Of a stretch of DNA of 64,000 nt, positions 5,047-57,945 are shown piece by piece. The position numbers were made by a program, and so were the translations under genes. Within the stretch, counting starts at the first letter, position 1, and every line of letters starts with the position of its first letter. Source of the stretch: a virus; the IMG/VR virus record IMGVR_UViG_3300045988_092736, positions 43,380-107,379 of that record. One strand, written 5' to 3'. The notes under the pieces were generated by a model, which did no database searches, was not told the origin of the DNA, and saw nothing but the letters and a program-made list of their open reading frames with translations.

Positions 5047-5484
5047 ATGAAAAGTATGCACGAAGAATTTATAGGAGCAGGAGTAGCTAACTTGTTTATT
5101 GAACGAATGAAGTTAGAAGGATGGTTGCCCATTAAAGAGTATTTCAAGATGAAAAAACTTGGAATTGAGCTTGATTGGGTAATGGTTCTTACTATGGAGT
5201 ATGATGGATTTATCGCAATACCAATGGTAGCAGAATATCGTGTTCCACATAAAGATAGTGGGCGAAAATCTGGTTGGTATAAAGACGAGATTGATAATCC
5301 AAACAGGAGAATTGATGATTGGACTAATGTAATTATGTTCAAGCTTATAGATAAGCCTTATATTGACGGAATAAGAGATTCTATTCTTGACAAATATAAA
5401 GAGGTTGAAGGTATTACAGATACTGATGCTTATAATTTATCTTTTAATAAGGCTGTTATTAAGCAATGTAATGGAATTAAATAA
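5047..5484 (+). CDS. hypothetical protein
   Basis: Intact ORF. Confidence 0.4.
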   Translation: MKSMHEEFIGAGVANLFIERMKLEGWLPIKEYFKMKKLGIELDWVMVLTMEYDGFIAIPMVAEYRVPHKDSGRKSGWYKDEIDNPNRRIDDWTNVIMFKLIDKPYIDGIRDSILDKYKEVEGITDTDAYNLSFNKAVIKQCNGIK

Positions 5485-5493
5485 TTATAGCTT

Positions 5494-5886
5494 ATGAAAA
5501 TAGAAAATATCAAGTTCAAGGCTAAACGTCTTGACAATGGAGAATGGGTTGGGGGTTCACTTACATACTCTCAGGGAACGGCATTTATCCATCGTAAAGA
5601 AAGTGATGAAGATGATAGATGTTATTTAACTCCTTACGAAGTAATTCCAGAAACGGTCTGCCAGTTCACAGGAATAATGGACGAAGACTGCAATGAAATT
5701 TGGGAAGGCGATATTGTGCGTGATACCGAAGACCTTATTGGTATAGATAATCTCTATGAGGTAGTTTATATTGAAGAAGAAGGAAATTTTGCCTTCAAGA
5801 GTTTAGATAAAGTTGATAATTACGAGCCATTTGTTAATTTATTTAATGCTTGTGTTGTTGGCAATAAATTCGATAAGGAGAAGTAG
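5494..5886 (+). CDS. YopX-like phage protein
   Basis: 'IKFKAKRLDNGEW' and 'CQFTGIMDEDCNEIWEGDIV' match YopX 'KFRAWDKK' and 'QYTGLKDKNGKEIYEGDIV'. Paralog at 57229. Confidence 0.55.
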   Translation: MKIENIKFKAKRLDNGEWVGGSLTYSQGTAFIHRKESDEDDRCYLTPYEVIPETVCQFTGIMDEDCNEIWEGDIVRDTEDLIGIDNLYEVVYIEEEGNFAFKSLDKVDNYEPFVNLFNACVVGNKFDKEK

Positions 5887-5889
5887 CGT

Positions 5890-6213
5890 ATGAATTACAA
5901 AAAGGTACTAACGAGATACATTCAAGGAAGGCTGTCGGAATTATCTAATGTTGACGCTTATGAACCAAACAAGTTAACATTAACTAATCTGTTGTGGTTT
6001 CTTGGCAAGGCTACCAGTAATGAAGTGATTGTCGCAAAGCTTAAAATCATGGTTGATGCAGACATTAAAAGAAAGAAATATCTAAGTAGATACGATGGTA
6101 ATGAATCATTATACGATGATGATTATTCCAAGGCGGTAGGCACTATCGGAAAGAAATGCTTGTCGTATTTACGAAACTGCAAGATGCAAATAAGGCAAGC
6201 CAAGAAGATTTAG
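5890..6213 (+). CDS. hypothetical protein whose 3' end overlaps the start of a KIRQAKKI-family copy
   Basis: Ends 'KMQIRQAKKI' followed by TAG. Confidence 0.4.
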   Translation: MNYKKVLTRYIQGRLSELSNVDAYEPNKLTLTNLLWFLGKATSNEVIVAKLKIMVDADIKRKKYLSRYDGNESLYDDDYSKAVGTIGKKCLSYLRNCKMQIRQAKKI

Positions 6214-8671: not shown

Positions 8672-9682
8672 ATGAATATAAAAAAGACAGACATGGAAGA
8701 AAAGATTAATATAGCGGAAATTCTAAAGAATAAGCCGCAAGGAACAAAGTTGTATAATTGGTTATATAATACAAATGTAGAGTTAGATACAATCAGTACA
8801 ACGGATAAAGAAACAGCTATATGGTGTACAAAGCAAAAAGATATTAATACCACCATTTATTTTTCTTTTTCCAAATTAGGAACTATGAAAGGATGGCTTG
8901 ACGGCTTACAGATTCTCCTTCCTTCAAAAGAAATGCGTGACTGGCGCAAATTCGCTTGGAAGAAAGGCGATTTGCTTATCAATAGTAGTGGATTTCAGTG
9001 CATTTTCAAAGAATGGGATTCGGATGATTATACAAAGTTCAACGGATGCTATTCTAATAGCAGGGATGGTTACGAAGACGTATCAAATGCAGAAACAGCT
9101 AAGTTTGACAAGTTAGATAACAATATTGCCTATGGATATGTCAGAGAGATTGAAAGAAAATTAGGTGGCATACTAAACCTTGAAACTTTGGAGATTGAGA
9201 AGGCTCAGCCAGAGTTCAAGGATGGTGATATTGTTTGTATGATGGATAGATTTGATAATTATCGCTTTATATTTATTTATAGAAATGAAGATGATGAAAA
9301 TTTTTATTATCATGCGCATATAACAAGAAATGGTTTTGTAAATTTAGGCGAGAATGAATATCTTAGTAAACCTCGCAATTATTCAGTTCATTTAGCGACA
9401 GACTTAGAAAAGCAGCAGTTATTTGATGCTCTTGCAAAGAAGGGCAAGGCTTGGGATGCTGAGAAGAAAATGATTGTTGATTTGAAGAAAAAAGTCGAGC
9501 TTAAACCTTTTGATAAGGTTGTAGTAAGATGTAGCGAAGCAGATAGATGGTCTATAGATTTCTTTAGTTATAAAGCACCTAACGGATATATATGTGCAGG
9601 AGACGCTTGGTTTGGATATTGTCTTCCTTACAATGAGGAGACTGCAAAGTTAATAGGTACAACTAAAGATATGGAGGTTTAA
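8672..9682 (+). CDS. hypothetical protein, paralog of 50355..51383
   Basis: 'ILKNKPQGTKLYNW' matches 'ILKDKPQGTKLYSS'. C-termini 'PYNEETAKLIGTTKD' and 'PYNEETAHLLGTTDE'. Confidence 0.45.
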   Translation: MNIKKTDMEEKINIAEILKNKPQGTKLYNWLYNTNVELDTISTTDKETAIWCTKQKDINTTIYFSFSKLGTMKGWLDGLQILLPSKEMRDWRKFAWKKGDLLINSSGFQCIFKEWDSDDYTKFNGCYSNSRDGYEDVSNAETAKFDKLDNNIAYGYVREIERKLGGILNLETLEIEKAQPEFKDGDIVCMMDRFDNYRFIFIYRNEDDENFYYHAHITRNGFVNLGENEYLSKPRNYSVHLATDLEKQQLFDALAKKGKAWDAEKKMIVDLKKKVELKPFDKVVVRCSEADRWSIDFFSYKAPNGYICAGDAWFGYCLPYNEETAKLIGTTKDMEV

Positions 9683-12165: not shown

Positions 12166-12377
12166 ATTTCTTATATTTAATAATGTGAGATTTTATTTTG
12201 TGTGCAAAGATAATGAATATAAATGAAACTACCAAATATTTTCTTTGTTTTGTGTAGATAAGTTCTAACAATGTGAATAAAAGTAAAGAATAAAGTCTAA
12301 ACGAGGTTACTAAGTTAATAATTGTTTATATTCTCACATTTTCTTTCAAAACATTTGGTATGTTAGAATATATTTTG

Positions 12378-12385
12378 TATCTTTG
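12378..12385 (+). promoter_or_regulatory. Bacteroidetes -7 promoter element TATCTTTG for the 12474 gene
   Basis: 'tattttgtatctTTGcaatg' matches TAnnTTTG. Confidence 0.45.
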
Positions 12386-12473
12386 CAATGTCTTTAAGAG
12401 ATAAAGGCTTTAAAGTTTAACTATTAATTGCTGTTATGCAGCCGAGTCGGCACTCGTAAAACGGTTTGAGGAT

Positions 12474-12812
12474 ATGACAACTTCAATTAAGAACAAGATG
12501 AGAAAGGTAATGCAGTTGGCACATAGAGCCTATCAGTTGAAATCAAGTTCAATGTCTTGGGTTGAGTGCTTGAAACAGGCTTGGCAGGTCGTAAAGCTTG
12601 AGGCAGCGATGAAGACCAAGGTAGTAGAGTTCTTCTTTATGAAGATGAATGGTGAGGTAAGACAAGCCTTTGGTACTCTCCTTCAGAGCCACATTGACTA
12701 CACTCCAAATGGTACTGGTCATGCAGCATCAAGAGATTGCATCCGCTATTGGGATGAAGAAAAGGGCGCATGGAGACAATTCAAGGCTTACAACTTCTTG
12801 CGAGTTGCATAA
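12474..12812 (+). CDS. hypothetical protein, paralog of 25024..25359
   Basis: About 60% identity by eye: 'MSWVECLKQAWQVVKLE' with 'MSWAECLKQAWQVIKLK', 'KMNGEVRQAFGTL' with 'KMNGEIRQAFGTL'. Shared conserved leader. Confidence 0.5.
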   Translation: MTTSIKNKMRKVMQLAHRAYQLKSSSMSWVECLKQAWQVVKLEAAMKTKVVEFFFMKMNGEVRQAFGTLLQSHIDYTPNGTGHAASRDCIRYWDEEKGAWRQFKAYNFLRVA

Positions 12813-14569: not shown

Positions 14570-14854
14570 ATGAATATACTAGACTATTATGAGGTTGTCT
14601 CCTCAAAGATTTTCAAGTTGGAAAGCATGAACGAGGGGCTTGTATTGATAGCACCGGAGCAGGAGGTGGATGGAGTCCGTTCCTTGATGGTGGGATTATA
14701 TGTTCCTGAGCATGAACGATACAAGATGTACACTTTCCGTTCATCTATGAACGAGGGCGAACTTGGCGACAAGTACAAGGCAATGGTCGGCACGATGGAT
14801 GTGCTTAAACCGGATTGGGACAGAATCAGAAAGAAAAGACGGAAGAGGATCTAA
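14570..14854 (+). CDS. hypothetical protein
   Basis: Intact ORF. Confidence 0.35.
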   Translation: MNILDYYEVVSSKIFKLESMNEGLVLIAPEQEVDGVRSLMVGLYVPEHERYKMYTFRSSMNEGELGDKYKAMVGTMDVLKPDWDRIRKKRRKRI

Positions 14855-15039
14855 CCTCTTACCGCCTTTAGGATGCATTCGTTGATGAAGTCACTCTTGT
14901 TTCCGTCTAAGGAATTGAGGATGTCAAGTGTTTCTTCTGTGGCTGAAAAGAACATACGTTTAGCGCATTTCTTCTTGCGTCCACAGCCTTCTCTTGCACC
15001 TCCCCATGACTTGGTTGTCTTTTCTTCATTTGTGCCCAT
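14851..15039 (-). CDS. small DNA-binding protein (possible ribbon-helix-helix)
   Basis: Basic N-terminus 'WGGAREGCGRKKK', then 'FFSATEETLDILNSL'. Convergent with the upstream plus-strand genes. Confidence 0.35.
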   Translation of the reverse strand: MGTNEEKTTKSWGGAREGCGRKKKCAKRMFFSATEETLDILNSLDGNKSDFINECILKAVRG

Positions 15040-15386
15040 ACGTTAAAAATTTGGTGGTTTGAAATAAATTTCGTACCTTTGCAACGAAATCCCAAGGTGG
15101 GAGGCGGTGGTGAGAACACCACCTCCCTGTTGGAAATCTAAGCTTTACAATTCAATTGTAAGAGCAACTTTGATTTTCCAAATCCGAATTGAAATATACA
15201 GTCTCATGCGGCTTTGGGATTTCATTTTACCTACTCTTTCAGGTTTTCGGCATCTCCTTTGCAATCTCTCATTGATTACACAGCAAAGATACGAAAAATA
15301 TTTGAAATATGCAAATTATTTCAAGATTATTTTTAGAAAACATGAAAATAAATTAGAGTTTCCTTGCATTTCTCGAAGGTTTTTGT

Positions 15387-24532: not shown

Positions 24533-24715
24533 TACGTTACATTGATATTTTCTTGCAAAGATAAGAATAATATTTAAAATGTAGCATATATACGTAAAAG
24601 TATTAACGAAGTTTAAAGAATAGTACGTTACAAATGAATATCTGTTAATTAACCTAAATACGTTACATTTTCTTTATAAAATATTTGGTAGTATAACGTA
24701 AATACGTTACCTTTG
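24533..24715. promoter_or_regulatory. divergent control region with five TACGTTAC sites and one TACGTAA variant; a sixth TACGTTAC lies at 24217-24224
   Basis: TACGTTAC at 24533, 24624, 24659 and 24703, a TACGTAA variant at 24591, and the inverted pair TAACGTA-aa-TACGTTA at 24694-24709, which overlaps the -7 element TACCTTTG at 24708-24715. Confidence 0.5.
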
Positions 24716-24806
24716 CATCGTGATTAAGAAACAAAGGTCACAATAACATTATTAATTTAGCTGAGGTTGCACCTCCGAGTCGGCACTCGTAAAACGGTAT
24801 AGCAAT

Positions 24807-24989: not shown

Positions 24990-25023
24990 GTAATTTAAGT
25001 TTAACGTTTAAAATTGAAAGATT

Positions 25024-25359
25024 ATGGCTACTACATTTAAGAATATGATGAGAGAAGTGATGAATATGGCACACAGAGCCTTTCAGCTTAAAGGTGCTTA
25101 TATGAGTTGGGCAGAATGCTTGAAGCAAGCTTGGCAGGTAATCAAGCTGAAGGCTCGCATGAAGAAGCAGGTTGTTGAGTTCTACTTTCAGAAGATGAAT
25201 GGTGAGATTCGTCAGGCTTTCGGCACTTTGATGGAGAGTCATATTGACTACACTACTAACGGCAAGGGTTACGCTTGCAAGGACTGCACAAAGTATTGGG
25301 ATGAAGTCAAGGGCGAGTGGAGACAATTCAAGAACTACAACTTGATTAGAGTTGCTTAA
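25024..25359 (+). CDS. hypothetical protein, paralog of 12474..12812
   Basis: See 12474. Confidence 0.5.
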   Translation: MATTFKNMMREVMNMAHRAFQLKGAYMSWAECLKQAWQVIKLKARMKKQVVEFYFQKMNGEIRQAFGTLMESHIDYTTNGKGYACKDCTKYWDEVKGEWRQFKNYNLIRVA

Positions 25360-26783: not shown

Positions 26784-27254
26784 ATGAAGAAGAAAGCCAA
26801 GCAAATAGCCAATGTGATGAGCAATGACTCTTTGGAGGTTGTTGCTCAGATGATTGTTGATGAGGCTAAAGGTGTGCGCTATGAAGTGTATGCTGATGGC
26901 TCTAGTAAGAACAACAAGTGTGGTTGCGGTTGGCTTGTGCTTCATAAGGGAGCGATTATCAATAGTGGGAAATATACATTTATCACAGCCAAAGTGAACG
27001 ATTCGGTGAGAGCCGAAATAAGGGCGGTCATTCAAGCATTGGGTGATTGCCCTCCTTTGTGTTCTGTTGATGTATATGTGGATTGCCAAGTGGCTATAGA
27101 GAGAATACAGGCTTGCAAGTTAGGAGACTTACAGCCTATATATAATAAGGTAGCGAAAGGCAAGGTGATAAGATACCATTGGGTTAAGGCTCATAGAGGT
27201 AATATGTATAACGAAATGGTGGATTCTTTGGCTTTTTCTGCTACAGAAAGTTAA
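26784..27254 (+). CDS. rnhA: ribonuclease H (RNase HI-like)
   Basis: 'VYADGSS' (D10), 'AEIRAVIQAL' (E48), 'VDVYVDCQ' (D70) and 'WVKAHRGNMYNEMVDSLA' (H124/D134) align with E. coli RNase HI catalytic residues. Confidence 0.75.
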   Translation: MKKKAKQIANVMSNDSLEVVAQMIVDEAKGVRYEVYADGSSKNNKCGCGWLVLHKGAIINSGKYTFITAKVNDSVRAEIRAVIQALGDCPPLCSVDVYVDCQVAIERIQACKLGDLQPIYNKVAKGKVIRYHWVKAHRGNMYNEMVDSLAFSATES

Positions 27255-27300
27255 TTTTGTGCCTACATATATAATAAGCGTTAAAATATAAAAGAAATAC

Positions 27301-27409
27301 ATTAAATAATTTGCATGTTTCAAATATTCTTTGTATCTTTGCATCGTAATTAAGAAACAAGGTTACTAATTTTAAAAGGTGAGACACACCGTAAAAACTG
27401 TGATTCGTT
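27301..27409 (+). promoter_or_regulatory. promoter-leader cassette, family A copy 1 (-7 TATCTTTG at 27334-27341, leader hairpin GGTGagacaCACC)
   Basis: About 95% identical to 48742-48852 over about 110 bp. Also related to 34060-34200. Confidence 0.55.
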
Positions 27410-27631
27410 ATGAATACTAGATTGAGTAAGAAAGAGACAATGGTTTATGGCAACATCGGAGTGATGGCTGACGTAATCGGAGGTAATAAGTACTTTACTT
27501 TTGCAGATTTGTATGATTTCGATTTGGATAATACCAAGGATGAGTTGAAAGAAATATTAAACTCTTTGACCGAGAAAGGTTACTTAAAGAGTTTTAATGA
27601 TTTCGATAAAACTTATCGAGTTTTGAAGTAA
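27410..27631 (+). CDS. hypothetical protein
   Basis: ORF directly downstream of the family A cassette. Confidence 0.4.
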   Translation: MNTRLSKKETMVYGNIGVMADVIGGNKYFTFADLYDFDLDNTKDELKEILNSLTEKGYLKSFNDFDKTYRVLK

Positions 27632-27638
27632 GAACACA

Positions 27639-27664
27639 AAGGGGATCCAAAATCCCCTTATAAT
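27639..27664 (+). terminator. hairpin terminator candidate
   Basis: 'aaGGGGATccaaaATCCCCttat'. Confidence 0.4.
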
Positions 27665-27796
27665 ATAAATTAAGAACGTGAGACACACGTAAAACTGTAT
27701 TGAAAAAATGAAAAAGGTATTCACGATTGAGAATGCATTAACGCTTTTGTTTGCTCTTGAAATAGTATCATTAATATTTTTTCTAGGATAGGGCTT

Positions 27797-28015
27797 ATGC
27801 AGATTAAGTTTGGTAAGATAAAGTTTACAGCGGCTAAGTCCGAAAAAGGATGCCGCTTTGATGCTTGCTACAAAGGTGAGCATGTGGCTTTTGAGAGTGA
27901 AGATATGTCTTTGTATGATGATGTATTTTCTGATAATAACAGAAGAGCAAAGGCTGCAAAGAGAGTGATTTACGAGAATATAAAGCATAAGTATTATGAA
28001 ACTCATAGAGATTAG
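27797..28015 (+). CDS. hypothetical protein
   Basis: Intact ORF. Confidence 0.35.
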   Translation: MQIKFGKIKFTAAKSEKGCRFDACYKGEHVAFESEDMSLYDDVFSDNNRRAKAAKRVIYENIKHKYYETHRD

Positions 28016-32835: not shown

Positions 32836-32885
32836 ACACTAAAACACTTGCAAGTATAAGAAAAAATGCTTATCTTTGCATCGTG
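32836..32885 (+). promoter_or_regulatory. promoter family B (tRNA operon promoter), -7 TATCTTTG at 32871-32878
   Basis: 'cactaaaacacTTGcaagt...TATCTTTGca'. Related copy at 41509-41558. Confidence 0.5.
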
Positions 32886-33289: not shown

Positions 33290-33311
33290 CAAGTACTTTT
33301 GTCATATTACA

Positions 33312-33385
33312 AGGAATGTAGCTCAGTAGTAGAGCACTTGGCTATGCAACCAAGGGGGCGTTGGTGCAAATCCAACCATTCCTTT
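33312..33385 (+). tRNA. tRNA-Cys: tRNA-Cys-like (GCA) with an apparent 8-nt anticodon loop
   Basis: Acceptor AGGAATG/CATTCCT, U8A9, D-stem GCTC/GAGC, anticodon stem CTTGG/CCAAG enclosing CTATGCAA, T-arm GTTGG-TGCAAAT-CCAAC, discriminator U as in tRNA-Cys. Confidence 0.5.
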
Positions 33386-33945: not shown

Positions 33946-33979
33946 AGGCTTTGGTGTGTGAACATCGAAGCCTTTTTTA
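33946..33979 (+). terminator. rho-independent terminator
   Basis: 'AGGCTTtggtgtgtgaacatcGAAGCCTTTTTT'. Confidence 0.65.
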
Positions 33980-34059
33980 TATATAATAAGGTATATAAAG
34001 AGGGTAATTGTTAATAACGTACATATATCAGTTACCGTAAGTTAAATAAACAAAGAAAA

Positions 34060-34200
34060 ACATTAAAATACTTGCATGTTTCAAAAGTTATTTGTATCTT
34101 TGCATCGTCAATCAAGATAAGTTGGTTGATTTGCCGAGTGACAAGTTTCACTCAATAAGGTGAGAGCGACACCAAGGGGTAAGACCCGAAACAACTAGCA
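34060..34200 (+). promoter_or_regulatory. promoter-leader cassette family A copy 3 (-7 at 34095-34102) with leader hairpins before the amidoligase gene
   Basis: 'acattaaaatacTTGcatgtttcaaaagttattTGTATCTTTGCATCGT', then hairpins GAGTGAcaagttTCACTC and GGTGagagcgaCACC. Confidence 0.5.
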
Positions 34201-34203
34201 CAA

Positions 34204-35139
34204 TTGATTATGTCTAAGCAGACTGGTTTTTCATTCGCAAGTTCAAAGAAGTCATTAATTGAGACTATTGACGAAATCAAGAAGTCAAAGATGTCTCGCA
34301 ACGAAAAGATTGTTGCATTGAAGGCTTGCGGTCTTCGTGAGAAAGAAATCTCCGATATGTTGAAGGTTTGTGTGCCAAGCGGTTCAACTTCAACGAGATT
34401 CGTTTATACATTCGGTGTTGAGATTGAATGTGTTCATGCCGAGCGCAATGCCTTGATAGAGGCAGGTCGTCAGAATGGTGTTGATATTCATTCTGAGGGT
34501 TATAACCACACCGATAACAAGAGCTATTTCAAGATTGTTAGTGATGCTTCAGTTGGTGGTGATGTTGACCCTAACGAGGTTGTAAGTCCGGTATTGAATG
34601 GCAATACAAATGGTATGGCAACTTTGAAGAAGGCTATCAAGTCTTTGGATGCTGTAGGTGCAAGAGTTAATTCTACTTGTGGTCTTCACGTTCATATCGG
34701 TGCAGCTAAGTTGACAGGTGAGCAGTATGTTAACGTTTTCAAGAATTATCAGAAGCTTGAAAGATTGATTGATAGTTTCATGGCTCCTTCAAGAAGAGGT
34801 AATTGCCGTTGGGCAGCCAGCTTGCTTGACAAGGATTTCTCTAATTGCCACGGCAATTACGATATTAGACGTAATGTATTTCATGGAGATAGATATTACA
34901 AGGTAAATGCTGAGAGCTATACACGTCACAAGACTATCGAGTTTCGCCAGCATCAAGGTTCAACCAATTATAAGAAGATTGAAATGTGGGTTAAGTTCTG
35001 CGCAAAGCTTGTCGGTTGGTCTCGAAACAATGTCTTCACTAGTGAGGTTATGAATATCGAAGATATACCTTTCTTGAATAAAGAAGAGAAGGCTTTCTTC
35101 CAGAGCCGTAAGGATGCATTTGCAGCCAATAATGATTAA
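34204..35139 (+). CDS. amidoligase-family enzyme (Amidoligase_2-like)
   Basis: 'FGVEIECVH', 'EVVSPVLNG' and 'TCGLHVHIGA' match the gamma-glutamyl-cysteine-synthetase-like amidoligase motifs of Iyer et al. 2009. Confidence 0.6.
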   Translation: MIMSKQTGFSFASSKKSLIETIDEIKKSKMSRNEKIVALKACGLREKEISDMLKVCVPSGSTSTRFVYTFGVEIECVHAERNALIEAGRQNGVDIHSEGYNHTDNKSYFKIVSDASVGGDVDPNEVVSPVLNGNTNGMATLKKAIKSLDAVGARVNSTCGLHVHIGAAKLTGEQYVNVFKNYQKLERLIDSFMAPSRRGNCRWAASLLDKDFSNCHGNYDIRRNVFHGDRYYKVNAESYTRHKTIEFRQHQGSTNYKKIEMWVKFCAKLVGWSRNNVFTSEVMNIEDIPFLNKEEKAFFQSRKDAFAANND

Positions 35140-41508: not shown

Positions 41509-41558
41509 GCACTAAAACGCTTGCAAGTTAGCGAAATATTATTTATCTTTGCAAGCGC
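41509..41558 (+). promoter_or_regulatory. promoter family B copy 2 (-7 TATCTTTG at 41544-41551)
   Basis: 'cactaaaacgcTTGcaagtt...tatttATCTTTGcaagcgc', matching the tRNA-operon promoter. Confidence 0.5.
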
Positions 41559-41564
41559 AGAACA

Positions 41565-41700
41565 AAAAAGGATAAAATGGCGATTTAAGAAATTGATAAG
41601 ATATTAGAGACACGAAACCCGATGGACTATACCGAAAGGCAGTCCGAGTCACTATTCCTTTGACTTTGCAATCGGTAGTTTCGTGTTTTTGTGTTTAAAA
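41565..41700 (+). ncRNA. candidate structured RNA: small RNA or transcription attenuator
   Basis: Nested inverted repeats ACACGAAAC...GTTTCGTGT, CCGAT...ATCGG and GGACT...AGTCC, ending in TTTTTGTGTTT, 8 nt upstream of the 41705 ATG. Confidence 0.35.
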
Positions 41701-41704
41701 TAAG

Positions 41705-42007
41705 ATGCAAGACGTAAGGTTGATATTCGAGATACTGGTTTCCATGTTGCTTTGCGTTTGTCTCATATTGCTTGCTGTAAGTAGATATAGGCAAAAGAAA
41801 AAGCGTGAAGAACCGGAGCGAAAGGAAATGGACTTGATAGACTTCTTTTCTTTGGGAGGAGTTGCCTATTATTGGAACAAAGGTGGTAAGCAGCAGAAAT
41901 GCTACACATACGAAGAATTTCTGAAAATCAAGGCTGACTACGTGGAGCTTTGGTTGAATCAGAATAGATATATTTTTAACTCTCAATTAGATTGCGATGA
42001 TATATAG
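41705..42007 (+). CDS. small membrane protein
   Basis: TM 'LIFEILVSMLLCVCLILLAV'. Confidence 0.4.
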   Translation: MQDVRLIFEILVSMLLCVCLILLAVSRYRQKKKREEPERKEMDLIDFFSLGGVAYYWNKGGKQQKCYTYEEFLKIKADYVELWLNQNRYIFNSQLDCDDI

Positions 42008-42321: not shown

Positions 42322-43428
42322 ATGTATAAAAACGAGCACAAGTTCCCTTATAGATGGACTAAAAAAGATGCTAATTTTACAAAAGACAAAGGTAAGGTGA
42401 TGTCTTGCTTTTGTTGTGGAGGTGGAAGTTCCTTTGGTTACAAACTAGCTGGATACGATGTTGTAGCCTGTAATGAGATAGACCCAAAGGTTATGAAGAT
42501 GTACTTGAAAAATCACGATGTCAAGTACGCTTTCAATTGTGATATTCGTGAGTTGATTACCAATATCAATATGGGGGGGCATATTATGAAAGAAGAGTTG
42601 CATAATTTGGATATATTGGATGCTAGTTTCCCATGTTCTGTATTCAGTATTGCAGGTGACCGCCAAAAGGCTTGGGGAAAGGAAAAAGTATTCCGAGAAG
42701 GTCAGAAGGCGCAAAGGCTTGACGATTTGGCTTTCTACTCTATTGACCTTGCTAAAGAACTAAAGCCAAAGGTGGTGGTTTTTGAGAATGTCCAAGGTTT
42801 GTTGCAAGGTGAAGCTATCGAGTACGTGAAAGAGATTTACAAGCAGATGGATAATGCCGGATATATCTTGCAGCATTGGTTGCTTAATGCACGTAATATG
42901 GGTGTTCCTCAGAATCGACCTAGGGTGTTCTTTCTAGGATTACGCAAAGACCTTTGCGAGCCGTTTATGGTTCAGAAGGATTTGTTCGAGCGAGTGCCTA
43001 AGATAGATATGGACTTCAACGAGAAAGAAATTGTCTTGGATGAGTTCTCGGACTATAATGGAAGACAGATTCCTAAAGGAATGATGAAGTATTGGGAGTA
43101 TAGAAACGAAAAGGACAATTCTATCGGTGATATTGTCAAGCGGATGGATAATCGTCTTTCTATGTTCAATAATATGTTTCTTAAAAAGAACAAGGTATGC
43201 AATACCATATCAGCAATGGAAGATAGACTTGTGTATTATGATAATCCAAGTTATCTTTCAGCACATGATACGATTTTAGCATCAACATTTCCGATGGATT
43301 ATGACTTTAATGGCATGAAACCTTGGTTTGCTTGCGGAATGTGTGTTCCTCCTGTTATGATGGCTAATGTAGCTACAAGAATCTGGGATTGTTGGTTATC
43401 AAAGATTAAAAAGGAGGAATGCGCATGA
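42322..43428 (+). CDS. DNA (cytosine-5)-methyltransferase
   Basis: Motif I 'FCCGGGSSFG', motif IV 'FPCSVFSIAG' (PC), motif VI 'VVVFENVQGLL' (ENV). Confidence 0.8.
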   Translation: MYKNEHKFPYRWTKKDANFTKDKGKVMSCFCCGGGSSFGYKLAGYDVVACNEIDPKVMKMYLKNHDVKYAFNCDIRELITNINMGGHIMKEELHNLDILDASFPCSVFSIAGDRQKAWGKEKVFREGQKAQRLDDLAFYSIDLAKELKPKVVVFENVQGLLQGEAIEYVKEIYKQMDNAGYILQHWLLNARNMGVPQNRPRVFFLGLRKDLCEPFMVQKDLFERVPKIDMDFNEKEIVLDEFSDYNGRQIPKGMMKYWEYRNEKDNSIGDIVKRMDNRLSMFNNMFLKKNKVCNTISAMEDRLVYYDNPSYLSAHDTILASTFPMDYDFNGMKPWFACGMCVPPVMMANVATRIWDCWLSKIKKEECA

Positions 43429-48638: not shown

Positions 48639-48680
48639 CCCCATCACTATATATAATAATGTAGTGGTGGGGATTTTTAT
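48639..48680 (+). terminator. rho-independent terminator
   Basis: 'CCCCATCACTatatataataatgtAGTGGTGGGGATTTTTAT'. Confidence 0.55.
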
Positions 48681-48741
48681 GTTAACGTCAGCAAATTATT
48701 TGTTAGCGGTATTATAGAGTGTTAAAAGATAAAAGATATAC

Positions 48742-48852
48742 ATTAAATAATTTGCATGTTTCAAATATTCTTTGTATCTTTGCATCGTAATTAAGAAATA
48801 AAGGTTACTAATTTTAAAAGGTGAGACACACCATAAAAACTGTAAGAAGAAA
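48742..48852 (+). promoter_or_regulatory. promoter-leader cassette family A copy 2 (-7 TATCTTTG at 48775-48782)
   Basis: Near-identical to 27301-27409, including the leader hairpin GGTGagacaCACC. Confidence 0.55.
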
Positions 48853-49227
48853 ATGAAAAAGTTTTTTGAAAACTTATCTGAAAATATTAATGATGCGGCT
48901 TTTGAGGCGCAGCTTGATGATTTTACTTGCGAGTTTGATGCTATTAACAAACCTGCTGAAATCGTGGTGTCCGTTAAGAGTAGAAAGGTTATCCATTCAG
49001 ATGGGAATATTTCTTCTTATCCATATTACAATGTAGATAAGATTAATATCTATGATGAAGACGGAGAAGACGTTTCTTCAAAATATCCTTTGTTCTGCCA
49101 AAGAGTTAAGGATTGCGTGCCTTCTTATAAAGATGTAGAGAATGACTTGACGGAGGCAAATATGAGCGATACCGAGCTTTATTTCGGCTCAGAGGCTAAT
49201 TATTTGCATTACAAGTATGGTAACTAA
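48853..49227 (+). CDS. hypothetical protein
   Basis: Downstream of family A cassette copy 2. Confidence 0.4.
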   Translation: MKKFFENLSENINDAAFEAQLDDFTCEFDAINKPAEIVVSVKSRKVIHSDGNISSYPYYNVDKINIYDEDGEDVSSKYPLFCQRVKDCVPSYKDVENDLTEANMSDTELYFGSEANYLHYKYGN

Positions 49228-50379: not shown

Positions 50380-51383
50380 TTATGGAAACTGAGATTAATA
50401 TAGTGGAAATCCTAAAGGATAAGCCGCAAGGAACGAAGTTATATTCTTCCGCTTGTGGTAAATGCAGGTTAGAAGAAGTGGATGATAAAAGTTTCAAAAT
50501 ATCCTTCTATAATTCAAAGTTTGGTCTTATGAACGGTGGAGAAGGGTATCTTGATAAAAATGGCAAATTGTATGATGACGGAGAATGTGTTGTTTTTCCA
50601 TCAAAGGAAATGCGTGATTGGTCTAAGTTCGCTTGGAAGAAGGGAGACGTGCTGGTAAGTAATGATGGTGGCACAGAGGTTATCTTTGACAAATGGTACG
50701 ATGATACCTATACCAATTTCTATGGTAGGCATTACCTTAATAGTGAAGAAAAAAATAATGTTAAGTATAATGAAACTTTCCTTTGTACAACTGAAAGATA
50801 CGCTCTTGAAGATAAGAATGCTGCTAAGACTTACCTCAAAACCATTGAGGAACGTTTGGGTGGAAAACTTAATCTCGAAACTTGGGAAATAGAAAAGCCT
50901 AAGTTCAAGAATGGGGATATAGTAGCCCTTGTGGTACAAAAATGTACACATATTGCTATATTCCAATCGAGACAAGGAGCATATATAGGATTCCATGCAG
51001 TTCTTTGCCAGAATGATGAGCTTCTTCTAGAAGAACCATTCAGAGAAGATGTTGGAGATATTGAACTTCGCCTTGCTACGGACTCAGAGAAGCAGCAACT
51101 CTTTGATGCTCTAGCCAAAGAAGGCAAAGTTTGGGATGCTGAGAAGAAACAGATTGTGGATTTGTCAAAGAAGTGTGAGTTCAAGCCTATGGATTGGTGC
51201 TTGATGAGAGATATTCGTGGAGAAGAATGTTTTGCTTGGAGTCTCTGCCAGTTTGCATATCAACTTAAACGTGGAAAGTATGAAGCTGTAGGAGGTATGC
51301 GTTTTGATGAGTGCATCCCTTACAACGAGGAAACTGCACACCTTCTTGGCACAACTGATGAATGGAAAGGAGGTGAGGGATGA
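50355..51383 (+). CDS. hypothetical protein, paralog of 8672..9682
   Basis: See 8672. Confidence 0.45.
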   Translation: MFNAKIGLVMETEINIVEILKDKPQGTKLYSSACGKCRLEEVDDKSFKISFYNSKFGLMNGGEGYLDKNGKLYDDGECVVFPSKEMRDWSKFAWKKGDVLVSNDGGTEVIFDKWYDDTYTNFYGRHYLNSEEKNNVKYNETFLCTTERYALEDKNAAKTYLKTIEERLGGKLNLETWEIEKPKFKNGDIVALVVQKCTHIAIFQSRQGAYIGFHAVLCQNDELLLEEPFREDVGDIELRLATDSEKQQLFDALAKEGKVWDAEKKQIVDLSKKCEFKPMDWCLMRDIRGEECFAWSLCQFAYQLKRGKYEAVGGMRFDECIPYNEETAHLLGTTDEWKGGEG

Positions 51384-56937: not shown

Positions 56938-57225
56938 ATGACAAAACCTTACAGAATCAAGCATAAGGCTAGTGGATATTTCTACCAACGTTACAACGGA
57001 AGTAACCTTGGCAAGAAAGGCAAGGTGTATATGAATAATCAATCACCACTTACAATGTGTGATAATGAGAACTTTATACGTATTCAGATTCGTCACAACA
57101 CTTTAGCTTATAAGGCATTGAGAGATACGCTTGCCAAATATGTTATAGGTAAAGATGATGAGTGTGAATGGCATAGTACATCTTACAGAGTTCCGAAAAG
57201 TGAATTTGAAAAAGAAGAATTATAG
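56938..57225 (+). CDS. hypothetical protein
   Basis: Intact ORF. Confidence 0.35.
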   Translation: MTKPYRIKHKASGYFYQRYNGSNLGKKGKVYMNNQSPLTMCDNENFIRIQIRHNTLAYKALRDTLAKYVIGKDDECEWHSTSYRVPKSEFEKEEL

Positions 57226-57228
57226 CTT

Positions 57229-57609
57229 ATGAAAGTAGAAAATATCAAGTTTAAGGCAAAACGTCTTGACAACGGAGAATGGATAATCGGAAGCTTTGTT
57301 GTAATGAAGATTCCTGCACTTAGCAAAACTACTATAGGTATCGTAGAAGCAGGCGGTGCAACGCTTCATGAAATTGACCCTGTTACTGTCTGCCAGTTCA
57401 CAGGGCTGACAGATTGTGAAGGTAAAGAATTGTTTGAACACGACCTAATACATTTCGTAGGGTATAAGCCTATAGGCGAAGTGATTTGGTCAGAAGAGAA
57501 CTATGCTTTTATGGTAGTCAGCGGAAATGAACCTTTTTATTGGCTTTCAGAAGTTCTGGAAATTGGTAAGATAGAAAGAGTTGGCAATAAATTCGATAAA
57601 AAGAAGTAG
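57229..57609 (+). CDS. YopX-like phage protein, paralog of 5494..5886
   Basis: 'MKVENIKFKAKRLDNGEW...VCQFTGLTDCEGKELFEHDLI...GNKFDKKK'. Confidence 0.55.
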   Translation: MKVENIKFKAKRLDNGEWIIGSFVVMKIPALSKTTIGIVEAGGATLHEIDPVTVCQFTGLTDCEGKELFEHDLIHFVGYKPIGEVIWSEENYAFMVVSGNEPFYWLSEVLEIGKIERVGNKFDKKK

Positions 57610-57945
57610 CGTATGAAGCGTATAAAAAGTATATTCTCTATGTTTGCTTATTGGGATAGAGTACATCAATTCCCAGACGGGCATATTAAAGTAGAAAATA
57701 ATTTAGCTTGGAGAAGAAAACATATGCATGTTCGCAGTAGTAATAAACAAATACCTTTTTAGCGTATGAAAAAAGAAACAAGAAATGTAGTAGTTCTCGA
57801 TTGGGAGGATAAAATTAAGCTACAACAATTTATCAAGGATTTGGAACAAATCTCTGAGACTTACCAAAGGCCTTGTAAGGAACTTACAGGTATCAATAAT
57901 ACAATTTACTATCTCAAAACGATTGAGGAGGAAATTAATTAAGAT

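Follow-up and report, generated by a model that had tools for sequence, protein, structure and literature searches.

Among the described elements in which a small hairpin is joined to a short conserved sequence, several come close to the one considered here, a hairpin-tail RNA module that lies just 5' of start codons in a 64,000-nucleotide (nt) stretch of viral DNA (positions 43,380 to 107,379 of the IMG/VR virus record IMGVR_UViG_3300045988_092736; the whole stretch is called the window throughout). The A-rich determinant of Bacteroidetes mRNAs is a single-stranded run of A residues just 5' of a start codon that lacks a Shine-Dalgarno (SD) sequence; in F. johnsoniae, A at positions -11 to -14, especially at -12 and -13, near protein S1, stimulates SD-less translation (PMC6847099). 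In the opsX sites of Bacteroides capsule operons, a leader hairpin is accompanied by a conserved sequence, and in class 2 sites the start codon follows 9 nt downstream (PMC11685472). The lambdoid nut sites and the rrn leaders contain, in leaders as well as between genes, a short hairpin with a stem of free sequence and a conserved purine-rich pentaloop that adjoins a conserved linear element. The REP and IS200/IS605 subterminal hairpins are small, have covarying stems and a short conserved flank, and occur in many copies on mobile DNA. Finally, the DUF805 and DUF805b RNAs (RF03081 and RF02914, clan CL00115) are small cis-regulatory candidates in which a hairpin is followed by an A-rich stretch (...CCAC UuaAAAAAC...).

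The module opens with a stem of 3-5 base pairs, free in sequence, that closes an invariant AGACA loop; a single-stranded tail, (N)UAAAA(A)CUGU(A), follows. It accounts for the terminal 24 nt of a leader some 60-70 nt long, and its end lies 8-10 nt from the start codon. As compared to the A-rich determinant, it adds the hairpin with its invariant loop and the CUGU(A) sequence, and it is found also in prophages of SD-using Clostridia (PMC6847099). Unlike the opsX sites, it is devoid of YGCGNAGCR, its hairpin is too near to the putative pause, and it occurs also in Clostridia, in the form of tandem arrays (PMC11685472). In lambda nut, the linear element precedes the hairpin, whereas here the order is reversed, and the module in addition keeps a fixed distance to the start codon and forms tandem arrays; no boxA consensus (GCUCUUUA-like) was found 5' of the hairpins, where the sequences are unrelated to boxA and vary between loci, and no N-like protein could be recognised, N proteins being too short and too divergent for family searches. 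From the REP and IS200/IS605 hairpins the module differs in that no unit antisense to its neighboring gene was seen, the distance from start codons is fixed, G-U pairs are tolerated and the tandem arrays are direct. The best score against the DUF805/DUF805b models was 14.4 bits, for a single array unit, as compared to the gathering threshold of 51.1, and there was no match on the promoter-plus-leader cassette that carries the module in the window; the 3' GAGUAGG of DUF805 is absent and the loop is different. A DUF805b identity was also considered as such and discarded, the consensus showing a different motif.

More generally, no family of Rfam 15 matches the module in a cmscan of the window, the cassette and the arrays. 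At gathering thresholds, the whole window yielded only five tRNAs and one DUF805b RNA, and E-value scans of the cassette and arrays returned nothing relevant, with no DUF805/DUF805b hit at E <= 10 on window positions 27200-27800 and no family at all at E <= 1 on six array loci. The literature searched contains no description of the motif sequence, of the AGACA pentaloop or of tandem prophage hairpins. On the evidence of sequence comparison, the leader hairpin is one example of a widespread, cross-phylum hairpin-tail RNA module located just 5' of start codons, for which neither Rfam nor the literature searched offers a counterpart.

The first-pass annotation of the window had reported a repeated cassette of about 110 bp, comprising a promoter and a leader, in three full copies and a truncated one, and had proposed that a hairpin in the leader might be a shared post-transcriptional control element. 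As far as sequence analysis can tell, the latter proposal fits what we find, namely, a hairpin that is conserved, covarying, confined to the sense strand and located in 5' leaders and intercistronic spaces. Three features had escaped notice: the conserved single-stranded UAAAACUGU tail is the other half of the hairpin's module, the module itself is far older and wider than the cassette, spanning two bacterial phyla, and the supposedly truncated copy contains a complete module.

Within the window, the module stands out clearly. A covariance model was built from 77 diverse units and every position of the window was scored with the full model, the resulting E-values being rough; exactly three strong matches were obtained, all on the plus strand and with 30-33 bits, the next best reaching 13 bits. 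Two of these belong to cassette copies, namely, 27377-27402 in copy 1 (30.8 bits, E = 3.8e-6; the hairpin is present in the minimum-free-energy fold) and 48819-48844 in copy 2 (33.3 bits, E = 7.4e-7). The third, at 27676-27699, overlaps what had been taken for a truncated, leader-only remnant (27669-27699). The full-model score of this match, 30.4 bits, is close to those of the other two hits, so that the module here is complete, promoterless and placed between two open reading frames (ORFs); no promoter box lies upstream, and after 8 nt (27700-27707) there follows an ATG at 27708. The terminator that had been supposed to precede this unit is doubtful, as a T-run on the plus strand is lacking behind the hairpin at 27639-27659. 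The sequence GTGAGACACAC occurs three times in the window (27379, 27678 and 48821).

When the 3' flank was searched for, TAAAA(A)C(T/G)GT turned up behind the hairpin in every case, the ATG lying 8-9 nt past this flank and 9-10 nt past the G of CUG. Hairpin and flank together occupy five intergenic sites, all on the plus strand: 27378, 27677 and 48820 with the AGACA loop, and 12443 and 24776 with the variant CGAGT-CGGC-ACTCG. In copy 1, 8 nt (27402-27409) separate the tail from ATG 27410, the G of CUG being 9 nt from the start codon; in copy 2, the distance is 9 nt to ATG 48853 of a 124-aa ORF (48853-49227).

The comparative evidence for an RNA structure is as follows. In the alignment of 77 units, changes on both sides are seen at all five stem pairs, the covariation score is 0.73 as compared to 0.19 in shuffled alignments (reached by none of 500), and the signal collapses when the register is slid. 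The inner three pairs served as a selection criterion in this set, and the census was therefore redone on 222 distinct units defined by loop and tail, with no requirement for a stem. Pairs 1-3 are Watson-Crick in 86-88% of these units; at pair 4, there are 132 Watson-Crick pairs, 22 G-U pairs and 3 A-C pairs, and this excess of G-U over A-C points to the sense RNA strand. All four flanking pairs are present at 46 of 2178 AGACA sites without the tail and at 177 of 224 sites with it, although the seed of the search inflates this contrast. RNAalifold on 19 arrays and folds of single sequences yield local hairpins only, with the tails unpaired, and no unit antisense to its adjacent gene was seen among the loci examined.

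The position of the module is equally well defined. Among instances that lack an SD sequence, an ORF starts 8-10 nt past the G of CUG in 55 of 78 (70%), as compared to 4% at random positions in the same loci, whereas in SD-type instances the SD sequence is interposed between tail and AUG. An extension of the tail to UAAAACUGUA is seen in 31 distinct contexts. A promoter-like box is found within 70 nt of 66 of the 88 single non-SD units, and 12 of the 88 are intercistronic with no such box; since the module occurs alike behind promoters and in promoterless gaps between genes, it tracks start codons rather than transcript 5' ends. The notion that CUG opens a start-stop mini-ORF was tried and rejected, because the next triplet is a stop in only about half of the 31 distinct contexts. 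The module is, then, conserved, has covarying stems, lies on the sense strand only and keeps a fixed distance to start codons.

The distribution of the module extends far beyond this phage. It was seen in more than 190 of the loci examined; a scan of viral contigs for GTGAGACACAC-N1-2-TAAAA yielded at least 118 loci, and a scan of contigs with one genome per species yielded 81, about 10 of which look like chance matches, both scans having been seeded on a single stem type (GTGAGACACAC) and many of the loci being closely related. The genuine genome matches fall within Lachnospiraceae/Clostridia and Bacteroidota. Among GenBank phage records, the module or the full cassette was found only in four uncultured 'Bacteriophage sp.' records; crAss-like and Microviridae records match weakly and in the promoter region only, and the Clostridia array has no match there. 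A scan with GG/CC stems added two more lineages that carry the module. One of them, represented by eight loci, carries AGUGG-AGACA-CCACU with ACAAAACUGU at its 3' side, downstream of what may be a TTGACA-type -35 box, on account of which the module may reach hosts beyond Bacteroidota and Clostridia.

In the Bacteroidota context (Bacteroides, Segatella/Prevotella, Parabacteroides, Paludibacteraceae and Chitinophagales, together with their phages, prophages and mobile elements), units are single. They usually follow a TAnnTTTG box by 11-37 nt and precede the ATG by 8-10 nt, and the genes that they serve are very diverse, their products falling into 30 clusters. Pfam identifies KilAC antirepressor, ParB and helicase domains among these proteins; SSB, a HigA-like antitoxin (behind HigB) and an IS605-type TnpB were assigned from reading the protein sequences only, and many of the others are small proteins with no assigned function.

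In Clostridia, by contrast, the module forms tandem arrays in prophages of Lachnospiraceae and others (Blautia, Eubacterium, Lachnospira). An array opens with GCC-CGAA-GGC and nUAAAACUAC, which are followed by up to three AGACA units with differing stems (CGG/CCG, GUG/CAC, GUGC/GCAC, GGG/CCC, GAG/CUC); it begins right behind an intrinsic terminator and runs directly up to the Shine-Dalgarno sequence, AAAGGAG, of a gene for an approximately 210-aa protein, which matches Pfam Phage_scaffold at 30.1 bits, under the curated cut-off of 35. In 52 Clostridia loci (402 kb), all 123 model matches lie in one same-strand array per locus.

Some further identities were considered and rejected. The A-rich tail speaks against an intrinsic terminator, and the hairpin at 27676-27690 is only a weak minus-strand candidate in a terminator scan. 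Repeats of the type III antitoxin kind (ToxI-like) do not fit, because the stems of the array units differ and the downstream gene encodes a scaffold protein. A hairpin promoter of the crAss-like or N4-like type was dismissed as well, as the 2324-aa ORF of the window matches tape-measure families rather than a virion RNA polymerase and the hairpin lies downstream of a host-type promoter.

What could such a module do? We favor, at a rough probability of 0.45, the view that it is an RNA element of the translation-initiation region which would boost or control expression via a partner. This view is favored because of the position of the A-run, the SD-adjacent tail in Clostridia and the kind of genes served. 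The A-run lies at about -13 to -17 relative to the start codon and, in Clostridia, immediately 5' of the SD sequence; it would thus overlap the stretch, -11 to -14, in which A residues are preferred by the SD-less ribosomes of Bacteroidota (PMC6847099). In the envisaged mechanism, the hairpin would keep the tail exposed and insulated from upstream sequence, and the invariant loop together with CUG would form a recognition surface for a trans-acting partner, which might be shared by the two phyla, as the ribosome or another core factor would be, or else borne by the element. Translation would in this way be kept high or under control, possibly with protection of the mRNA in addition, and the genes served could all be seen as needing a strong or privileged output: early genes behind strong promoters, a scaffold protein, SSB, and an antitoxin following its toxin.

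Several observations weigh against this view. The module has C and U at -12 and -11, and the match to the A-rich determinant is only partial, given that A-12 is among the two most critical positions in F. johnsoniae. A structural or insulating role leaves the invariant AGACA loop and the CUG unexplained, and no partner has been recognised; three tandem AGACA units with a leading hairpin are superfluous for a simple enhancer. In some instances, the distance to the main ORF is about 95 nt, and in the TnpB leaders it is 16 nt. Moreover, covariation is seen mostly between paralogous units, not within one orthologous lineage, because sampling was seeded on GTGAGACACAC and many loci are closely related.

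A more specific version of the translation-initiation view seems distinctly improbable to us. According to it, the AGACA hairpin with UAAAACUG would be a compact, SD-independent enhancer that recruits or docks the ribosome, its partner would be a universally conserved part of the 30S subunit, and phages and mobile elements would have spread it across phyla. The loop could then imitate the conserved loop of 16S rRNA helix 13 (UGAGACAC) and engage in the same kind of A-minor docking, and the arrays ahead of scaffold genes would multiply the effect.

The least improbable alternative, albeit an unlikely one, is a processing or stabiliser site: an endonuclease would cut within the A-rich tail or between units, and the next hairpin, now at the new 5' end, would protect the mRNA and uncouple it from the upstream transcript. 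Hairpins at 5' ends are known stabilisers of mRNA, as in ompA and SP82; here, the arrays stand behind an intrinsic terminator and ahead of the most highly expressed structural genes, and several Bacteroidota hairpins begin 11-20 nt past the -7 box, that is, at the extreme 5' end of the predicted transcript. A stabiliser, however, requires neither a fixed distance of 8-10 nt to the AUG nor an invariant loop, and we know of no nuclease of such specificity that would be common to Bacteroidota and Clostridia. It is more doubtful still that the module is a transcription-elongation signal, with the hairpin programming a pause of RNA polymerase at C-U|G just before the start codon, where a factor for elongation or antitermination, be it a NusG paralogue or an N-/Q-like protein, would be loaded or the first ribosome coupled to the polymerase. 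In rrn leaders, boxB is followed by boxA, again a hairpin and then a linear element. Leaders of B. fragilis capsule operons carry a pause hairpin with an ops-like site, the class 2 start codon being at +9, as compared to 9-10 nt past the CUG here, and CUG agrees with Y(-1) G(+1) in the elemental pause consensus, which is reported to work for Bacteroides RNA polymerase (PMC11685472). Yet only 8-9 nt, instead of 11-12, separate the foot of the hairpin from the 3' end of the putative pause, position -10 is not a G, and neither a GCGNAGC-type non-template hairpin nor a boxA-like GCUCUUU is present. The arrays, for their part, sit downstream of terminators, not upstream, and several tandem pause sites are, to our knowledge, without precedent. 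Of the 38 Pfam families found for the 113 ORFs of the window, which is itself only a part of the genome, 25 were listed, and none of these is a NusG or KOW family.

Two readings remain. The first, which appears very improbable, holds that the units are decoys or mimics, imitating the loop of 16S rRNA helix 13, a CRISPR repeat that ends in ...UAAAAC, or the substrate of a toxin, so that a host factor or a defence nuclease would be titrated or recruited. Indeed, the commonest unit contains an 8-mer, UGAGACAC, that recurs unchanged in the conserved helix 13 loop (the bacterial SSU consensus in Rfam is CUGAGAcACG), helix 13 is reported to dock on helix 44, and the tandem arrays resemble sponge or decoy RNAs. 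The 7-mer match to 16S rRNA is, however, not significant taken alone (0.27 expected; one or more in 49 of 200 shuffles), the rRNA loop in Rfam is one of 10 nt rather than a 5-nt loop closed by G-C, the variable stems imply that no single cellular RNA is copied, and a decoy has no need of a fixed start-codon distance. Cas13/CRISPR-repeat mimicry by the UAAAAC tail was also considered, but the variable stems count against it. Least probable of all, in our opinion, is a DNA-level element, that is, a single-stranded DNA hairpin like REP or an IS200/IS605 end, or else an operator or promoter for a DNA-binding protein, that would have spread as a mobile sequence, its proximity to start codons being incidental. 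REPs and IS200/IS605 ends also combine a hairpin with a conserved short flank; the module is spread over unrelated phages, prophages and mobile elements of two phyla, and in relatives TnpB-like ORFs (by reading) stand directly behind a AAAAACTG tail, their own promoter and module recurring in three different flanks. Against this stand the orientation of the units, none of which was seen antisense to the adjacent gene and which in arrays are direct, never inverted, repeats; the 22 to 3 ratio of G-U to A-C at pair 4; and the tight start-codon spacing. Duplex operators, furthermore, do not evolve with a free stem and an invariant loop, and no Y1 transposase was seen.

The features of the window that bear on the module and its cassettes are collected in Table 1.

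Table 1. Coordinates of the cassette copies, module units and adjacent features within the window
Feature	Position	Strand	Remarks
Copy 1 promoter	27300-27347	+	upstream ACATTAAATAA block; -33 TTTG 27310-27313; 20-nt spacer; -7 TATCTTTG 27334-27341; then CATCGT
Copy 1 leader, 5' part (AATTAAGAAACAAGGTTACTAATTTTAAAAG)	27348-27377	+	kept within this phage clade only; fold z = -0.17, not significant
Copy 1 module	27378-27401	+	stem GGTG 27378-27381, loop AGACA 27382-27386, stem CACC 27387-27390, tail GTAAAAACTGT 27391-27401
73-aa ORF behind copy 1	27410-27631	+	weak PHROG match, replication-initiator family, E = 0.0045
Strong hairpin AAGGGGATCCAAAATCCCCTT	27639-27659	+	directly 3' of the stop of the 73-aa ORF; no T-run on + strand
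Stand-alone module	27676-27699	+	ACGTG-AGACA-CACGT, tail (T)AAAACTGTA; covariance model 30.4 bits, E = 4.8e-6
Hydrophobic mini-ORF, 27 aa (MKKVFTIENALTLLFALEIVSLIFFLG)	27708-27791	+	served by the stand-alone module; conserved in related phages
Copy 3, promoter only	34061-34108	+	-33 (C)TTG 34071-34074; -7 TATCTTTG 34095-34102
Copy 3 leader, different and more structured	34109-34209	+	fold z = -2.57; three or four other hairpins
Copy 2 promoter	48741-48788	+	-33 TTTG 48751-48754; -7 TATCTTTG 48775-48782
Copy 2 module	48820-48843	+	GGTG 48820-48823, AGACA 48824-48828, CACC 48829-48832, tail ATAAAAACTGT 48833-48843
Variant module, family B cassette	12443-12465	+	CGAGT-CGGC-ACTCG, then TAAAACGGT; 8 nt to ATG 12474 (WYL_2/DUF2693 protein)
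Variant module, second copy	24776-24798	+	same hairpin and tail; 8 nt to ATG 24807 (60-aa ORF), then WYL_2 paralogue 25024-25359

The cassette in which copies 1 and 2 of the module reside (family A) was correctly located by the first-pass annotation at 27301 and 48742, and the repeat is not a product of chance. The segments 27301-27401 and 48742-48843 are about 97% identical, with two substitutions and one indel in the alignment, as far as ...AAAAACTGT, and the divergence between the two copies is confined to the last 8-9 nt ahead of ATG 27410 and ATG 48853, respectively; the repeat pairs detected in the window are 27277-27377 with 48718-48818 and 27359-27401 with 48801-48843, at 98%. A 37-nt promoter pattern matches at 27311-27347, 34072-34108 and 48752-48788 and nowhere else, and it has no match in 100 shuffles. 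What had been described as a diverged copy at 34060-34200 shares the promoter (34060-34108) and the first six bases of the leader, but the remaining leader is unrelated. Its hairpins include GGTG-AGAGCGA-CACC (34159-34173) and GGG-UAAGA-CCC (34177-34187), the latter followed by GAAACAACUAG; the covariance model of the module finds no match in this leader, and GGG-UAAGA-CCC with GAAACAACUAG could be, at most, a degenerate relative of the module. The claim that every copy follows a terminator stands for 34060 (hairpin and T-run, 33946-33973) and for 48742 (hairpin, then ATTTTTAT), but no terminator was detected before 27301. Similarly, ORFs do begin at 27410 and 48853 as had been stated, but the third, preceded by the copy 3 leader and amidoligase-like (PHROG and Pfam Amidoligase_2), likely begins at ATG 34210 and not at TTG 34204. 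Several paralogous gene blocks lie 12-52 kb apart with 72-95% identity (8693-9682 and 50382-51383; 5480-5894 and 57215-57617; 12473-12812 and 25023-25359); duplication in this genome is therefore not restricted to promoter cassettes.

That the cassette contains a promoter is borne out by its -33 TTTG, 20-nt spacer and -7 TATCTTTG, which are of the Bacteroidota type. Bacteroides/Bacteroidota sigma-A promoters reportedly have -33 TTTG and -7 TAnnTTTG boxes (Bayley et al. 2000). The two boxes, which in such promoters stand 19-21 nt apart, are separated by 20 nt in all three copies, so that the promoter itself shows no difference from the Bacteroidota sigma-A type; what the cassette adds is the upstream ACATTAAA block and the CATCGT start region, both clade-specific. 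Transcription of copy 1 would start at about 27346-27349. Because the boxes are those of the Bacteroidota host type, the phage seems to use the host RNA polymerase for this region. A simple scan of the window found the same boxes at about 12 further intergenic sites, including 12378, 15074, 15387, 24708, 25846, 32871 and 41544 on the plus strand and 12212 and 15291 on the minus strand; family A accordingly looks like one sub-family of the promoters of this phage. Across 48 distinct cassette sequences from related phages, the boxes, the upstream ACATTAAA block, the start of the leader, the hairpin and the tail are invariant. In relatives, the cassette stands ahead of at least four different genes and so behaves as a portable module. 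The duplicated promoter cassette as such is ordinary, a strong host-type promoter apparently reused for at least four different early genes.

Some observations on these promoters deserve mention in their own right. The promoter at 32871 precedes the cluster of five tRNAs, one of which (33311-33385) scores as a tRNA in Rfam with 59.6 bits and has an anticodon loop of 8 nt (CUAUGCAA), ARAGORN reporting tRNA-??? with the four-base anticodon atgc; it could be frameshift-suppressor-like or otherwise unusual. Between the promoter at 41544, which also belongs to this type (TATCTTTGCAAGCG), and the ORF at 41705, some 150 nt are non-coding and include hairpin-prone segments (41544-41704); this stretch could be a long leader or a small RNA. 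The DUF805b RNA (RF02914) of the window lies at 15228-15260 on the minus strand (39.6 bits, gathering threshold 35.6), behind a family-A-like promoter (-7 box 15291-15284) and upstream of a 62-aa ORF (14851-15039, minus strand). A second motif, TATATATAATAA(G/T)G, is located 45-170 nt 5' of each family A promoter, being exact at 27137-27150, 33978-33991 and 48648-48661 and having two mismatches at 27266-27279; with up to two mismatches, it matches 10 times in the window as compared to 3.0 expected. In the segment 48641-48672, the motif occupies the loop between the arms CCCCATCACTA...TAGTGGTGGGG of a long hairpin that is followed by ATTTTTAT, and it could represent another promoter class or a part of a terminator.

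The variant modules belong to two family B cassettes, 12348-12473 and 24657-24806, in which the RNA would read CGAGU-CGGC-ACUCG followed by UAAAACGGU. The ORFs 12474-12812 and 25024-25359 encode paralogous WYL_2/DUF2693 proteins with an Sm-like fold (E ~1e-17). That Sm-like proteins are encoded behind a hairpin-tail leader points to the possibility of autoregulation, or to these proteins as candidate partners of the RNA. A search with the WYL_2/DUF2693 locus retrieved only relatives at 97-100% identity, and the CGGC-loop variant, as far as contig names alone can tell, does not seem to extend beyond this phage clade.

In five relatives, TnpB-like ORFs (378 aa, IS605-type by reading) occur at different places; none was seen in the window. 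In three different flanks, these ORFs come with their own Bacteroidota promoter and AGACA module, and shorter copies start right behind AAAAACTG or AAAGTG, which suggests that the TnpB-like element may target, or have as its transposon-adjacent motif, a sequence resembling the module tail.

As to the phage itself, a large gut phage of Bacteroidota, the window has 38% GC, carries nearly all of its genes on the plus strand and is probably part of a genome of 110-135 kb; the stretch between 26 and 36 kb is 94.6% identical to an uncultured human faecal phage record. The module sequence is found inside CRISPR spacers, flanked by repeats, in metagenome-assembled genomes (MAGs) of Prevotella sp. and Paraprevotella, and a contig of a Segatella copri MAG carries the 27.6-kb region of the window; on these grounds, the host is probably Prevotella/Segatella.

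If the module acts at the level of translation, it would constitute a 24-nt, host-independent expression signal of gut phages that functions in SD-less Bacteroidota as well as in SD-using Clostridia, and it would offer both a handle on initiation without Shine-Dalgarno pairing and a part for the engineering of Bacteroides and Lachnospiraceae. If, instead, a specific factor is bound, we would be dealing with a new regulator-operator pair common to many gut phages. For annotation, the module is of use in that it marks true start codons and operon starts in the genomes of uncultured phages.

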